IMG/VR virus record: IMGVR_UViG_3300035703_000041
Location: 1-64,000 of that record
From: a virus
Length of the DNA stretch: 64,000 nt
Reading direction: 5' to 3' (one strand)
A program made the position numbers and the translations under genes. Every line of letters starts with the position of its first letter. Position 1 is the first letter of the stretch. Below, piece after piece: positions 14,979 to 50,539 of this stretch. The notes below the pieces were generated by a model. It made no database searches, was not told the DNA's origin, and saw nothing but the letters and a program-made list of their open reading frames with translations.

Positions 14979-16013
14979 ATGCTACTCGTTGATTTATTTG
15001 AAGGTGGTTGGACCACTACTGTAACCCAAGGTACTGTTATTCGTCCCAGTACCGTTAAAAAAGCTCTAGCAATAATGGAAAAGTTTATTGCTGATTTTAA
15101 TGTTTATGCAAAACAAAATGATATCCCAACAGTTAAGATTGGACACCCAACAGGTAGCAGCGCATATCACGAAGTAGATCCAGAAGATAAAATTTACGGT
15201 GATATCGATTTACAAATTGTTGTTCCAGAATTAAAAGACAAACCAAATATGACTACTGGACAAATACAGTATTTTTGGAATAAGCAATTTGGAGAGTTTG
15301 TAAAAGCAACTAATCCAAATTATGTACATCCTGATTCAACACCTGGACATCCAATCCTAAATATTGGAGGTGATGCTTGGGTACAGATTGATATAATGCC
15401 ACACCCAGAACCACTTGCTACGTGGGGACGATATAGAGCAACACCAGAGCGCGGTGTAAAAGGAATGCTTAACGGAAATATGTTTGCTGTAATAGGCGAA
15501 ATGCTTATGCTTAACTTGCAACATTCCGGAGTGCAATATAAGGAGCAAAATAGTCGTCGTGTTCCATATGCTGCAACTAAAAAAGATTATGAATTAAAAA
15601 CTATTACTACAAATGTAGAAACATTTGTGCGTGATATATTTGATAACGAATATAAAGACATCACATATCGTGATCCAAAAAATGCTAAAATTGATCCATT
15701 GTTAATTAAGCATCCAGGTAGTGACCTTAAAGAAGTAAAAATCAGTAACCTTGTTAATGCTGTAAAAGGTATGGCACGTAGTTTTGAAATGAACAATATG
15801 TATGGTAAAGACATACTTACTCCATATTTGAATGCAGAAGACTTTTTAAACAAGTTTGTTGAGATCTATATGAAAAAAGCACAAGGTGCAATTGATGCAC
15901 CAAAACGCGATAAGGCAGAAACTCCAGAAGCTAAAGCAAGAGCAGAAGCAGATAAGAAGTCTATTGCTCAAGGTGCCAAGATGGTTCAACAATTATTTGC
16001 AAAGAATGATTAA
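14979..16013 (+). CDS. Pol-beta-superfamily nucleotidyltransferase with head-protein-type leader
   Basis: TGSS...GDIDL...QIDI; leader MLLVDLFE|GG; resembles N-terminal domain of 36103..42510. Confidence 0.6.
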   Translation: MLLVDLFEGGWTTTVTQGTVIRPSTVKKALAIMEKFIADFNVYAKQNDIPTVKIGHPTGSSAYHEVDPEDKIYGDIDLQIVVPELKDKPNMTTGQIQYFWNKQFGEFVKATNPNYVHPDSTPGHPILNIGGDAWVQIDIMPHPEPLATWGRYRATPERGVKGMLNGNMFAVIGEMLMLNLQHSGVQYKEQNSRRVPYAATKKDYELKTITTNVETFVRDIFDNEYKDITYRDPKNAKIDPLLIKHPGSDLKEVKISNLVNAVKGMARSFEMNNMYGKDILTPYLNAEDFLNKFVEIYMKKAQGAIDAPKRDKAETPEAKARAEADKKSIAQGAKMVQQLFAKND

Positions 16014-46000: not shown

Positions 46001-46387
46001 ATGACTAAGAAGAGAATTAAAGAAGGCCTCAGCGACGAAGCTATGGCAGTTGACCGCGACCATGAGGTACAAATGGCTCGCGCTCAACTTTATCATTTAG
46101 CTAATGATGCTGTACGCTTACATAAGTTGTTAAAGAACGTAACTGAATCAGAAGGACTAGAAGGTTGGATGCAAAGCAAGATTACACTTGCTGCGGACTA
46201 CATTAAATCAACTGCTGATTACTTGGAATACGATAAGATTAAAGCACCTAGACCAGTAACAGTTACTCCAGCACCAATGATGCCAACTGCTGGTATGCCT
46301 GAAAGTGTAAGCGCAGGTGGTATGGGTGCTGGATCGGTTGCTACTGCTCCAATGGCTCTTAAAAAGAAACCATTAGTTAGAAGATAA
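46001..46387 (+). CDS. Head-type late protein
   Basis: RIKE| leader; MARAQL...EGWMQSKIT.A.DY; TAAATA at 45970. Confidence 0.6.
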   Translation: MTKKRIKEGLSDEAMAVDRDHEVQMARAQLYHLANDAVRLHKLLKNVTESEGLEGWMQSKITLAADYIKSTADYLEYDKIKAPRPVTVTPAPMMPTAGMPESVSAGGMGAGSVATAPMALKKKPLVRR

Positions 46388-47083
46388 TTTCAATATTTCC
46401 CAAGTATGCTCCCAGTTTTCAACACGGTGAGCAATATCAACACTAACAGCCAGGGGGTAATCATTTCCCCCTGGCAATGTTTTATCACCAAAGAAAATAA
46501 CTGGGCCTGTAGGTTTAATAAACTCTAATACTTGGCGCTTATCTTTACCTGTAGGGTAAATGTCTATTCCAGTATCACCACCAATCATAAAGTCAATGTT
46601 TTTGAACTGGCGTTCAAGTCTTAATGCTATATCAATCCGCTCACCGTGTTCTTCATCATACTTTTTGTATGTGTCTCGCTGTTGGGAATCAGCGCCGCGA
46701 CCTAATACACTAAAATTTACTAGTCCAGTTCGAATTTCTATATGATTCCCTGTACGTATGGGAAACTTACTGTTAGTTAATTCTTCATCTAACGCATCAA
46801 TTAGTTCGTGTGGTGGTTGCCAGTTTGAAGCATGTGTTATTAGCTTACCTATTCTTACTTCGTTCCCGCAACAGTTAAAGATCATTTTAGCGTTATCTAT
46901 TACTTCTTCCCCAACTTGTGCTAAAGTTTTAGGATAATCACTTCCAGTAACAAGATAAGTATTATGTGTTTTTTGCCACTCAACAAACCAATCTTTAAAT
47001 TTAGGATCCATTTTAGCCCTGCTTGGTGTTAGTGTACCATCTACGTCAAAAACATAACTTATATTCATGTTTAAATTTAACAT
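46373..47083 (-). CDS. HAD-IIB phosphomannomutase-like protein
   Basis: FDVDGTLTPSR, VTGSD, IE.R.G..NFS.LGR, FFGDK..PGGNDY. Confidence 0.8.
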   Translation of the reverse strand: MLNLNMNISYVFDVDGTLTPSRAKMDPKFKDWFVEWQKTHNTYLVTGSDYPKTLAQVGEEVIDNAKMIFNCCGNEVRIGKLITHASNWQPPHELIDALDEELTNSKFPIRTGNHIEIRTGLVNFSVLGRGADSQQRDTYKKYDEEHGERIDIALRLERQFKNIDFMIGGDTGIDIYPTGKDKRQVLEFIKPTGPVIFFGDKTLPGGNDYPLAVSVDIAHRVENWEHTWEILKLSSN

Positions 47084-47129
47084 AAGTTATATGTTAAAAT
47101 CAAATAAATAAACAATATTGGAGACTTGA

Positions 47130-47558
47130 ATGTCACGCGGATTAATGAAAAAGTATATAGATATACTAATGGAAGCTTTAAGCTATTCCAGCTTGCAAGA
47201 TGCAGGAGATGATTATAGTCCTGGCAATACTCAAATTTGGTATTGGAGAGAAGATCTTGGACGCGATATGATGATGGGATATGATTTCCTTAAAAAGCAA
47301 AACAAGCTTCCGGATCCAGCAAATTTATCAGCTACACATGTACTAATTGGTAGCATTGCTGAAACTAATTTAGATAAAATTTATTCAATGATGCAATCAG
47401 AAAGTTGGAGCCCACAGGGTGAAGCTAGAGATTTAATTAATAAAAGCGGGGCTGGTCATACAAGTATGAGTGTTGGTGATATTATTGTAATTAATAATGA
47501 TGCATCTATGGTTGATAAAGTTGGGTTCGTAAACCTAGCAACAGGGGAAGAAATATAA
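47130..47558 (+). CDS. YodL-like domain protein with head-type leader
   Basis: L..IY...GHTSMSVGDII...VD.VGF; leader MKKYIDILME|; TAAATA at 47105. Confidence 0.6.
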   Translation: MSRGLMKKYIDILMEALSYSSLQDAGDDYSPGNTQIWYWREDLGRDMMMGYDFLKKQNKLPDPANLSATHVLIGSIAETNLDKIYSMMQSESWSPQGEARDLINKSGAGHTSMSVGDIIVINNDASMVDKVGFVNLATGEEI

Positions 47559-48934
47559 TGTTACTTGAAAGTTTATTAAAAGAGTTTGATGAAGCAGTAA
47601 ACAAACCTAAATTTACTGGTTATTGGAAAGCTCAAGATAAAGCACCTCCAGGCAAGAAAATGGTTGGTGAAGAAGAAAAAACTACAGAAGCATCAACTTT
47701 GGATACTGACATTGAATATGAACCAAGTGTAGATCAAGAGTTTGATAAGAAAGAGCTTGCAGCATTGTTAACTCAAAAATTAACAGGACTAGCACCAAAA
47801 GAAGAACGAGCAATTAGATTAAAAATATTTTATGATTATACTTATGATCAAATTGGTGAAAAATTTGGGGTATCTGGTGATAGAGCAAGAGACATCTTTA
47901 TGAAGGGAATTAGAAAATTGAGGCACCCTTCTCGCGCGAGAGAAATTAGACCTTTCCTTGAGGATGAAAATCCAACAGATAAAATTACAATGGATATACC
48001 ACTATTTTTACGTATGATGGAATATGCTAAAGAAGATGCAAAAACAGATATGGACTTGCATCAAGTAACTGCTCGCGCAATAGAATTAATGCAACAACAT
48101 GACTACCTATGTATGGATAATTATGATACTATCATAAACAATAGCGAACCTATAGATGAAGGTTGGTTAGATAAAGTTTACTCTGCTGGTCGTAACTTTG
48201 CTGATACTGCCACTCTAGGTGGTTACAAGTATGCACGAGCTGGTGCTGATTACGCTGCTAAGAACATTGGCAATAAATTAGGGTTCGATGTGAAACCTAC
48301 CACATATCAAAAAGAACTTGATCAGGAAGTTGAAAAACTTAACAAAGATTGGGAAAAGGAACCAGGTGCAAGTCTAGCTGGCATGGGTGGAGCAATGGCT
48401 TTACCTCTAGCCGGTCAATACGGCGCTGCTGTTAAAGGCGCACAGGGGTTAGGTGGTCAAGCATTAGATGCTTACGGTAAGTTTGTTAAAACATATCCAT
48501 TGGCTAAAAAAGCTTTAGGTTTAGAAAACAAAGATGAAGATATAGATGAAGAGAAAAAAGGTCTTTACTATTATGTAAACAAGCGTAAAAAGGCTGGCAC
48601 AAGCAGACCAGCTAGTCATCCAAAAGCACCAAGCGAACAAGATTGGAAGAACGCTGCTAAGACTGCAAAGAAAGAAAGTGTGGGCGAAGCGGGTCAATTT
48701 TCATATGGAGCTAAAACTCCACGCAAAGGCACAGTTGCTTACAACGCAGCACAAAAGCGTAAAGAAGATGAAAAAAGACAAAAACCAATTGAGCCAAAAG
48801 ATCAAATGGTCGGTGTTGCTAAGGTAACAAAAGAAGGCAAGGAAAAAGGCGCTGATGGCAAAGCTTGCTGGCCAGGTTATCGTTATGCTGGCACAGAGAA
48901 CGGCAAAGACAAGTGTGTGAAAGTTAAGAAGTAA
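47558..48934 (+). CDS. Modular polyprotein containing an RpoD region-4 module
   Basis: KGIRKLRHPSR..EIRPFLE; about 7 short modules bounded by xxE junctions. Confidence 0.65.
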   Translation: MLLESLLKEFDEAVNKPKFTGYWKAQDKAPPGKKMVGEEEKTTEASTLDTDIEYEPSVDQEFDKKELAALLTQKLTGLAPKEERAIRLKIFYDYTYDQIGEKFGVSGDRARDIFMKGIRKLRHPSRAREIRPFLEDENPTDKITMDIPLFLRMMEYAKEDAKTDMDLHQVTARAIELMQQHDYLCMDNYDTIINNSEPIDEGWLDKVYSAGRNFADTATLGGYKYARAGADYAAKNIGNKLGFDVKPTTYQKELDQEVEKLNKDWEKEPGASLAGMGGAMALPLAGQYGAAVKGAQGLGGQALDAYGKFVKTYPLAKKALGLENKDEDIDEEKKGLYYYVNKRKKAGTSRPASHPKAPSEQDWKNAAKTAKKESVGEAGQFSYGAKTPRKGTVAYNAAQKRKEDEKRQKPIEPKDQMVGVAKVTKEGKEKGADGKACWPGYRYAGTENGKDKCVKVKK

Positions 48935-50539
48935 ATGTTAATTAAAGATTTGCTACAAGGATCTACGCATGTTAATGAGGATGCTATATCAGATCTTGCC
49001 AGTAAATTAAAGAGTACTAAAGCAACAAGTTATGATAATATCGATGCAATTATGCAAAAGATAGCAAAAGACAATAATATAACAGCTAAAGAATTACACG
49101 ACATTTGGGTAAAAAAGTACGGTGAAAAACCAGATGATTGGATTAAAGATCAACTTAATGAAGCATTAACCGCTAAAGATACAGTTGAACGTTGGATTGC
49201 TGTTTTTAAAAGTAGTAAGCATCCAAAGTTTGCAGGTAAAACTCCTGAGCAGCGTGAGAAGATGGCAAGAGCTGCACAATATCGTGCAGTTCATAATAAA
49301 AAAATTAATGAAGCAAAAGTAACACTATATACTGATCCATCATACTATGGTGCTGAAGTTGCAGACAATGCTGGCGAAGGTATACCCGTACAAGAAATAC
49401 CATTAGACAATTTAGTTGGGTTTGAACCTGACGTTAAAATGCAGGACAAAAAGAGTGCAGCCAATATGTCTAAAATGGTTGACCTATTGAAAGCAGGCAA
49501 GGGCAAAGAACTACCACCAATACTAGTACGCAAGTATAAAAATGGTTATCAAGTATTAGATGGACATCATAGATTCCATGCTTACAAGAAAGCTGGAATA
49601 AAAACTATTCCAGCTAAACTTGTTCCTGATGAAGATATCAAAGTTGTTGATAAAATTGAAGAAGGTCCAGTTTGGGATAAAGTAAAGAATACTGCACTTG
49701 CTGGAACAATGGCAGGTGCGCTAGGGTATGGTGCGCTAACAGGGCAGTTACGTGACGAACCAAGGCAAGTGCCAGTTGACAAACCTCCTTTAGAAATTAC
49801 TATACCAGGTGGTCAAGCAGAACCTGAAGTTAAAAAAGAACCAGAAAAACTATCACCAAGTACCGCTACAAACGCAAACAAAGAAATGGAAAAACTCGTG
49901 CTAACTGTTGCTTATCGCTCTGGGATAAGAGGTCAAGAGTTGGCACAATTCATGGGACAAGTTGCTCATGAGACACTAGGATTTCAACGTTTAGTAGAAG
50001 TTGGTAGCGCAGAATACTTTAATAGATATGATCCAGAACATAGTCCTAAAAAAGCAAAGATACTTGGTAATGTTAATCCTGGTGACGGCATACGTTATAA
50101 AGGTCGCGGGTTTATACAAATAACTGGGCGTGACAACTATAAGCGTGCTGGGAAAGCACTAGGGATTGATTTAGAAAATAACCCAAAGTGGGCAAGCAGT
50201 CCTAAAATTGCTGCTAAGATCGCTGTATGGTATTGGAAAAGTAGAGTAAAACCAGCAGTGGATGACTATACTGATACTATTGGTGTTACTTCAAAAATTA
50301 ATCCTAGTATGAATGGTCTTGGTGATAGAGACATGAACTTTCATCATTATTTAGAAAAGCTTAATTTAAATGAAAATTTTGCTGATGGAAAGAAACCAGG
50401 ACGCAAGGGATTAGCCAAAAGAGTTGGTGTTAATTGTAAACAAAGCGTGACAAAGTTAAGAAAAATTGCTAGTAATAGTAGTGGTGAAAAACAGCGTATG
50501 GCACATTGGTGTGCAAATATGAAAGGCGGCAAAAAATGA
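48935..50539 (+). CDS. Modular polyprotein with ParB/Srx and GH19 muramidase modules
   Basis: PPILV...VLDGHHRF; AQFMGQVAHET...YKGRGFIQITGRDNY. Confidence 0.75.
   Translation: MLIKDLLQGSTHVNEDAISDLASKLKSTKATSYDNIDAIMQKIAKDNNITAKELHDIWVKKYGEKPDDWIKDQLNEALTAKDTVERWIAVFKSSKHPKFAGKTPEQREKMARAAQYRAVHNKKINEAKVTLYTDPSYYGAEVADNAGEGIPVQEIPLDNLVGFEPDVKMQDKKSAANMSKMVDLLKAGKGKELPPILVRKYKNGYQVLDGHHRFHAYKKAGIKTIPAKLVPDEDIKVVDKIEEGPVWDKVKNTALAGTMAGALGYGALTGQLRDEPRQVPVDKPPLEITIPGGQAEPEVKKEPEKLSPSTATNANKEMEKLVLTVAYRSGIRGQELAQFMGQVAHETLGFQRLVEVGSAEYFNRYDPEHSPKKAKILGNVNPGDGIRYKGRGFIQITGRDNYKRAGKALGIDLENNPKWASSPKIAAKIAVWYWKSRVKPAVDDYTDTIGVTSKINPSMNGLGDRDMNFHHYLEKLNLNENFADGKKPGRKGLAKRVGVNCKQSVTKLRKIASNSSGEKQRMAHWCANMKGGKK

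Follow-up and report, generated by a model that had tools for sequence, protein, structure and literature searches.

A sigma-70 region 4 domain as a swappable unit of a mosaic, possibly head-packaged protein in an uncultured giant phage related to T4

The DNA considered here covers the first 64 kb of a virus contig of 95,224 bp (IMG/VR record IMGVR_UViG_3300035703_000041), and this stretch of 64,000 nucleotides (nt) is called the window. Its source is an uncultured giant (jumbo) freshwater phage related to T4. The DNA polymerase, clamp loader and RnlA-like ligase encoded on the contig are T4-type, and the closest cultured phages, as judged by the DNA polymerase, are Phosso, Atu_ph07 and GAP32, whose jumbo genomes of 360-490 kb agree with the genome of about 360 kb implied by CheckV. 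According to CheckV completeness, the contig represents 26% of the genome, and the contig-wide absences reported below cover its 95 kb alone. Our subject is a cassette of 91 residues resembling region 4 of sigma-70, which lies within a mosaic open reading frame (ORF) of 458 amino acids (aa). The ATG start codon of this ORF overlaps the stop codon of the upstream gene (TAATG). The parts of the ORF, with isoelectric points (pI) where they were calculated, are the following.

47558..48934, plus strand: mosaic ORF with the cassette, 458 aa, from the ORF list
47558..47593, plus strand: N-terminal leader M-L-L-E-S-L-L-K-E-F-D-E, residues 1-12, with hydrophobic-x-Glu at 4, 9 and 12
47612..47668, plus strand: peptide tag F-T-G-Y-W-K ... 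G-K-K-M-V-G, residues 19-37, a portable motif
47669..47689, plus strand: acidic linker E-E-E-K-T-T-E, residues 38-44, the left junction of the cassette
47690..47755, plus strand: cassette part 1, acidic extension, residues 45-66, pI 4.05, predicted to be disordered
47756..47962, plus strand: cassette part 2, sigma region 4 fold, residues 67-135, helices H1-H5, pI 10.1, aligned with E. coli sigma70 540-612
47870..47911, plus strand: recognition helix, residues 105-118, placed by HMMER alignment to 1TLH chain B and 2P7V chain B
47963..48154, plus strand: next module, residues 136-199 (N-P-T-D-K ... M-D-I-P-L-F ... D-M-D-L-H), delimited by alignment-end borders
48155..48832, plus strand: three more modules, residues 200-322, 323-377 and 378-425, delimited by pile-ups of alignment ends
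48833..48931, plus strand: C-terminal Cys motif C-W-x-G-Y ... C, residues 426-458, a portable end piece

When 5.8 billion clustered proteins were searched, 641 homologues of the ORF were returned, nearly all of which cover only parts of it. The alignment ends pile up at residues 133-138, 193-204, 319-330, 373-378 and 421-432, and the protein is thus made of discrete units. In an AlphaFold model of the whole ORF, the linkers with a low predicted local distance difference test score (pLDDT) coincide with these borders; the model is poor (mean pLDDT 54) and was used for the linker pattern only. Leaders and tags were counted over the 120 best homologues. The F-T-G-Y-W-K tag is present in 20 of them, mostly at the N-terminus, but internally in P0029 and at the C-terminus in P0131. 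The Cys motif is present in 57, usually about 22 residues from the C-terminus and at times right after the leader; it is the best part of the whole-ORF model, where it forms a beta-hairpin with a pLDDT of about 80. Both of these small elements may be addressing or anchoring tags. P0131 consists of the leader, the Cys motif, a region 4 and then the F-T-G-Y-W-K tag at its C-terminus, so the same small units exist in a different order, with the tag and the Cys motif reversed relative to our ORF. The module that follows the cassette (residues 136-199) has 27 invariant columns across 30 homologues and is 55% identical to the version in a 735-kb uncultured phage (LR756501), and in two smaller T4-like contigs (L005 and L008) it is a gene of its own, encoding about 165 aa. 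Its invariant motifs are N-P-T-D-K, M-D-x-P-L-F, E-Y-A-x-E-D-A and D-M-D-L-H. The mosaic coverage map and the permutation of modules show several unrelated domains that are shuffled among relatives, as in proteins of the polyvalent type.

Judged by sequence and predicted fold, the cassette is a real sigma-70 region 4, comprising the end of the 3.2/4 linker, regions 4.1 and 4.2 and the C-terminal helix H5. A first-pass annotation of this DNA had described a peptide bounded by TTE and FLE, and this peptide is found in frame +2, from A45, directly after K-T-T-E44, through P-F-L-E135. The Pfam family Sigma70_r4 (PF04545) matches residues 76-123 with 29.3 bits, against a cut-off of 24.1 (E 6e-7); in the genome-wide search with the same profile the match scored 33.6 bits at 47783-47926 and was the sole region 4 in the contig. 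The PHROG family 'RNA polymerase sigma factor' also matches (1.2e-9). A phmmer search of the PDB sequences gave 58 matches (best 1.2e-11), which are primary sigma factors (RpoD, SigA or HrdB) except for one SigB, the lowest. The cassette aligns with Escherichia coli RpoD from L540 to D613, that is, up to the natural C-terminus of RpoD (1TLH, 2P7V). KLRHPSR had been read as the C-terminal signature of primary sigma factors, and rightly so, as R-K-L-R-H-P-S-R ... F-L-E is present and the alignment ends at RpoD 613. An AlphaFold model of the cassette, made from 75 sequences, has five helices and a core pLDDT of 82-94, and each top match in Foldseek is a region 4 of sigma70 or sigmaA, for instance 8cwr_B, with a root-mean-square deviation of 1.9 Å over 67 columns. 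Because the domain is small, the Foldseek E-values are only about 2e-3, and we put the weight on the uniformity of the matches and on the sequence searches.

Compared with region 4 of enteric RpoD, the cassette is 39-41% identical, has the same five-helix fold and ends where RpoD ends. It differs in that it lacks regions 1-3 and is embedded in a larger unrelated protein, in a four-residue deletion in the 4.1/4.2 turn, after F563, and in the acidic extension that precedes it, which is specific to the phage. The absence of regions 2 and 3, already remarked on from the sequence alone, holds, as just 44 residues of the ORF precede the cassette and PF04545 is the only one of these domains found in the ORF. 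A profile search for Sigma70_r2 (PF04542) found no match in the 95-kb contig. With no region 2, the cassette cannot be a sigma factor on its own. It had also been called a stand-alone cassette; it is a cassette, but it is an internal unit of a longer ORF and not a stand-alone gene.

The cassette nature of the unit, the firmest of our new results, is borne out by its relatives, which show its presence, absence or replacement at the same junctions. In P0001 and P0002 a region-4 unit with 86% identity occupies the same slot. P0003 is 97% identical to our ORF through residue 39 and then has an unrelated insert of about 230 residues, and in P0004 the slot is empty and the protein runs directly into the next module. 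In P0018 and P0021 a unit with 57-60% identity lies at residues ~250-340 behind a nucleotidyltransferase-like domain, and P0032 corresponds to P0018 minus the region-4 unit. In a quick tree the five cassettes cluster (support 82), with sub-clades supported at 97 and 98, and the sub-clade of our cassette has a long stem. An exhaustive HMMER search of 1.84 billion representative proteins with the cassette gave 4698 matches at E<=1e-3. P0021 came first (1.4e-26), followed by a gap, with the next matches at about 1e-14; below the gap, short metagenome proteins that fuse an RpoD-like region 4 to unrelated sequence are numerous. Further sigma-4 mosaics are P0131, P0123, P0160, P0133 and P0135. Taking the identity of the domain and its behaviour as a cassette together, we have very little doubt about either.

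Some of the related proteins are of interest in their own right. P0270 and P0271 fall with P0021 into one 90%-identity cluster, and compared with P0021 two of their four to five substitutions lie in the cassette, one being R to K at the equivalent of sigma70 R584. P0129, P0139, P0140, P0144, P0174, P0185, P0218, P0234 and P0240 belong to a metagenome family of ~200-370 aa with an RpoD-like region 4 in the C-terminal part and a conserved N-terminal motif, R-x-E-A-R-x-R-N-N-x-L, which gives a weak match to an XRE-type helix-turn-helix (HTH). The two members scanned for it, P0129 and P0139, have no Pfam region 2, and the family looks like an unstudied two-HTH sigma-4 family. In P0130 (471 aa) and P0141 (454 aa) the C-terminal region 4 is the sole Pfam match, behind about 390 N-terminal residues with no recognised sigma regions. 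Sequence searches found the cassette absent from cultured phages, and PF04545 was not found in Phosso, Atu_ph07 or GAP32. Matches to 'phage' records in tblastn were rejected as phage cassettes: they are host rpoD from prophage flanks or contaminated records. A scan of IMG/VR for the cassette gave no close relative, and the JGI metagenomes contained only two distant region-4 matches (41-44% identity). Freshwater sequencing runs contained small shares of matching sequence; among the contigs of sequencing runs, which are short fragments, none outside the source spans the region-4 core and no cassette-less joint was seen.

The -35 recognition helix had been described as altered, and so it is: V-T-R-E-R-I-R-Q-I-E of RpoD corresponds to V-S-G-D-R-A-R-D-I-F in the cassette. 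In sigma70 numbering, the changes are R584 to G, E585 to D, I587 to A, Q589 to D, E591 to F and A592 to M, and the residues kept are R586, R588, K593, R596, K597, L598, R599, H600, P601, S602, R603, F610 and L611. The set that contacts -35 bases (R584, E585, R586, R588 and Q589) thus reads G, D, R, R, D. Across the cassettes, position 584 is G or R, position 585 is D, T or Q, and position 589 is D in all. The most conserved part of the cassettes is the R-K-L-R-H-x-S-R segment. Between the two cassette lineages, segment 590-603 is 82% identical, whereas the base-contact half of the helix (582-589) is 50% identical. Helices H1, H2 and H5 of sigma70 contact the beta-flap of RNA polymerase; in the cassette, the hydrophobic positions of H2 and H5 show conservative changes (F563 to I, L607 to I) and F610 and L611 are kept. 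The acidic extension of 22 residues is 70% identical between the lineages and matches RpoD at only 1 of 22 positions; it has a pLDDT below 50, and it offsets the basic core, so that the whole cassette has a pI of 6.9. Published work on sigma70 places base contacts at 584-589 and activator contacts at 593-603; the segment 590-603 is contacted by many activators (PMC2988021). The pattern of conservation fits a protein-binding role better than the reading of promoters. As a speculation, the acidic extension, which sits where the sigma 3.2/4 linker would enter the RNA exit channel, might mask the DNA face or add a contact.

The leader links the ORF to proteins with quite different bodies. A leader of the type M-[LK]-[LI]-x-[DE]-[LF]..x-E starts about 80 of the 120 homologues, the bodies of which differ, and the same type is found in genes of the contig at 14979, 36103 (encoding a multi-enzyme protein of 2135 aa), 43716, 48935 and 91664. 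Here it ends in hydrophobic-x-Glu (L-K-E9 and F-D-E12) and is common to unrelated putative cargo. The capsid-targeting sequences of T4 are N-terminal propeptides of 10-20 residues that are cut after Glu (PMC9026906; PMC5694885). They bring the internal proteins and Alt into the prohead, where they are removed by gp21 (PMC9026906; PMC3012670), and gp21 and the proteases of giant phages all cleave after Glu (PMC5694885). In our ORF, [LIVMF]-x-E sites are found at residues 4, 9, 12, 38, 101, 135, 155, 201, 331 and 377. Of the five strongest module borders, three are no more than 3 residues away from such a site, a result that random placement reproduced in 0.7-1% of trials, and a Glu directly precedes the cassette in both of its unrelated left contexts. 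We regard the evidence from the Glu borders as suggestive but not strong. A T4-type prohead protease (Peptidase_S77) is encoded by all three of the nearest cultured relatives, and also by one of the two contigs mentioned above that carry the 136-199 module as a gene, an IMG/VR contig.

The genes and sites around the ORF are as follows.

47103..47110, plus strand: T4-late-promoter-like box AATAAATA, 19 nt upstream of the first gene of the operon (47130)
47130..47558, plus strand: YodL-like gene, 142 aa, weak match to Pfam YodL (E 0.004)
48935..50539, plus strand: gene with leader, ParB_N and GH19 lysozyme-like domains, 534 aa, downstream in the same operon
46373-47083, minus strand: eukaryotic-type phosphomannomutase gene (Pfam PMM, 106 bits), amid cargo genes on the plus strand
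1740, 14968, 28318, 29449, 36070, 43690, 45969, 47104, 55289 (minus strand), 55308 and 63277: ATAAATA sites in the window

The product of the YodL-like gene shares 38% identity (E 6e-26) with the N-terminal half of P0135, a metagenome protein of 248 aa, the C-terminal half of which is a sigma region 4. YodL-like and region-4 domains are therefore adjacent here and fused elsewhere. The gene at 48935 matches ParB_N (27.8 bits) and Glyco_hydro_19 (54.4 bits) in Pfam and an endolysin family in PHROG (3e-40), and its leader starts M-L-I-K-D-L-L; this combination is typical of polyvalent or ejection-protein content. The late promoters of T4 consist of a TATA box of 8 bp, in which the A(-13) variant is common (PMC2988020). 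As an exact 8-mer, TATAAATA shows no enrichment in the window, with 3 copies against an expectation of 8, and the late-promoter-like signal emerges only from the 7-mer core ATAAATA and its placement ahead of genes. This core occurs 18 times in the contig; 15 sites are intergenic, 14 lie 4-37 nt upstream of an ORF on the same strand, and the enrichment in upstream regions is 16-fold. It precedes the operon with the cassette, the gene for the 2135-aa polyprotein, another leader-bearing gene and an operon annotated by PHROG as 'virion structural protein'. It marks leader-bearing cargo genes and not replication genes, and the DNA polymerase gene is without it. The leader, the late-promoter-like motif and the Glu-ended borders all fit a virion-cargo setting, in line with the injected decoy proposed in the first-pass annotation, and on balance, with modest confidence, we take the ORF to encode head cargo.

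Our favoured reading, which we hold tentatively, is that the ORF encodes a late-made, leader-tagged mosaic cargo protein that is cut at its joints, and that its region-4 piece is ejected and acts through protein surfaces. The mosaic protein would be made late in infection and carried into the prohead by its N-terminal leader. There, a T4-type prohead protease would cleave the joints between modules, each time after Glu, with E44|A45 and E135|D136 among the sites, and the resulting region-4 piece of about 10.6 kDa would be ejected along with the DNA. In the new host this piece would work through the protein contacts of region 4 and not by reading promoters, its candidate targets being the beta-flap tip of RNA polymerase or the proteins that bind region 4. 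The outcome would be that -35-dependent host initiation is weakened from the very start of infection. All of these steps, from late expression through packaging, cleavage and ejection to target and effect, are inferred. For each side of the proposal there is a precedent in T4, where gp33, a small flap-tip protein that does not read DNA, can reprogramme RNA polymerase (PMC2988020), and Alt is an ejected enzyme that modifies RNA polymerase (PMC9026906; PMC3012670). The sporadic presence of the cassette among near-identical relatives suits an accessory weapon better than an essential cofactor. The specific role of a decoy for the flap or for a partner protein is more doubtful than the general scheme. 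Less likely again is its most detailed form, in which a capsid-delivered domain 4 with an acidic peptide that mimics the linker would occupy the beta-flap or titrate regulators, and so silence -35-dependent promoters before the phage expresses its own genes.

Several points weigh against this reading. The border statistic is modest, with p ~0.01 at +-3 residues and ~0.04 at +-6. The left border of the cassette is T-T-E and not the L/I-x-E of the T4 type. On the right, we considered FLE as an evolved cleavage site but reject it as proof, because RpoD itself ends in FL(D/E). Searches of the 95-kb contig found no gene for Peptidase_S77, a capsid protein or a portal. A weak match to Gp23 at 87448-87654 (30.8 bits), which lies within an array of small genes, was not counted as a capsid gene; it crosses a TGA and a TAG and is probably spurious. 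H5 is only 28% identical between the two cassette lineages, which is odd if flap contact by H5 is the point of the module. Furthermore, an isolated region 4 probably binds the flap weakly in comparison with a whole sigma factor held by several contacts, so a decoy would need a high copy number or extra contacts. Finally, the basic core (pI 10) would be compatible with plain DNA binding as well.

This last point leads to the alternative that survives best, which we nevertheless consider unlikely: a DNA-binding internal head protein, in which the sigma-4 HTH is a small basic unit packed with the genome and has no link to RNA polymerase. Such a unit could neutralise charge, coat or mark the entering DNA, or bind a new sequence. 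The internal proteins of T4 are small, basic and located within the packed DNA (PMC3012670), which the pI of 10.1 of the core would match, and in the AlphaFold model the HTH is intact; R586 and R588 are kept, and R584 is kept in sister cassettes. However, the lineage of our cassette has lost R584 and carries an Asp at 589, on the helix that faces DNA, and over its whole length the cassette is close to neutral. What is best conserved is the RpoD-specific R-K-L-R-H-x-S-R together with the acidic extension, and simple DNA binding offers no reason for the retained C-terminal signature of RpoD.

A more improbable alternative is that the protein is not packaged at all and acts inside the cell as a cofactor, either as a minimal sigma factor or as a gp33-like flap partner of a phage factor of the region-2 type, the rest of the ORF being an unrelated fusion. 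Minimal sigma factors with a single HTH and orthologues of gp33 have been reported in group 2 jumbo phages (PMC7824862), gp33 has been described as a mimic of sigma-4 and gp55 plus gp33 as a split sigma factor (PMC2988020), and a region-2 partner could be encoded in the part of the genome beyond the contig. Unlike an essential cofactor, however, the cassette varies in presence among near-identical relatives, being missing from P0003, P0004 and P0032, and Phosso, Atu_ph07 and GAP32 do without any Sigma70_r4 match. The leader and tags of the ORF, like the neighbouring ParB/lysozyme and YodL-like genes, indicate cargo, and a cassette that lies within the ORF has no way to expose a C-terminal clamp-binding tail like that of gp33. 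The weakest alternative, a passenger or decaying module without any function, in which a mosaic gene that shuffles fast would have captured the 3' end of a sigma gene, is very improbable: the Pfam score of 29 bits is well under the 47-73 bits of the relatives, the lineage of our cassette is on a long stem and the P0021 cluster has two of its few substitutions in the cassette, but the frame is intact, the model predicts the fold with confidence, conservation reaches 70-82% in some segments, and in at least two protein contexts with unrelated flanks the unit persists at 57-60% identity.

The reading of the cassette as an ejected, protein-binding module draws on known kinds of elements, namely sigma region 4, T4 leader-addressed cargo, polyvalent proteins and flap-tip binders. 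With IPI-III and Alt of T4, the ORF shares a short leader ending in hydrophobic-x-Glu, occurrence in a T4-related phage, a promoter box of the late type and varied, fast-changing cargo, and Alt is ejected and directed at host RNA polymerase (PMC9026906, PMC3012670, PMC2988021). Here, however, several units are combined in one ORF and shuffled as cassettes, and the unit is a sigma domain and not an enzyme or a restriction inhibitor. Like gp33, the cassette is a small helical unit expected at the site of sigma domain 4, where reading of the -35 element is not needed (PMC2988020). It differs from gp33, which has no detectable kinship with sigma factors and ends in a sliding-clamp-binding tail, in being a true homologue of sigma-4, internal (residues 45-135 of 458), sporadic and devoid of such a tail. 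The minimal sigma factors of group 2 jumbo phages (PMC7824862) come from a group with the T4-type polymerase and capsid and have a single HTH that binds the flap domain, but by their description they are separate sigma-factor genes, whereas the cassette sits in a mosaic protein with a leader, and Phosso, Atu_ph07 and GAP32, which are of the group 2 type, lack a PF04545 match. Polyvalent proteins (Iyer et al. 2017, PMC5512222) also consist of many small unrelated domains, are thought to be delivered with the DNA, and include kinds catalogued there that are neighbours here (YodL-like, ParB_N and lysozyme). The word sigma is absent from the text of that paper, so its catalogue contains no sigma domain, and the addressing in our case, by a leader and proposed Glu cuts, looks T4-like.

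In the literature searched we found nothing relevant on a sigma domain that is packaged or acts as a decoy, and no case in which leader-tagged cargo has a sigma domain as one of its swappable units. Phages reach host RNA polymerase by proteins made after entry (AsiA, gp33 and their own sigma factors), by injected enzymes (T4 Alt) or by injected polymerases (phiKZ-like). If our reading is true, delivery of a sigma domain from the capsid would add a fourth way of redirecting host RNA polymerase, and a virion-borne sigma-domain decoy would be a class of take-over effector with no earlier description. With its 91 residues, the cassette is small and easily testable against purified RNA polymerase. 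The many uncharacterised metagenome proteins with only a region 4 that are among its closest relatives suggest, as far as sequence can tell, a wider use of this domain outside sigma factors. If the reading is true, pieces of the host transcription machinery would serve as swappable ammunition in the cargo proteins of jumbo phages.

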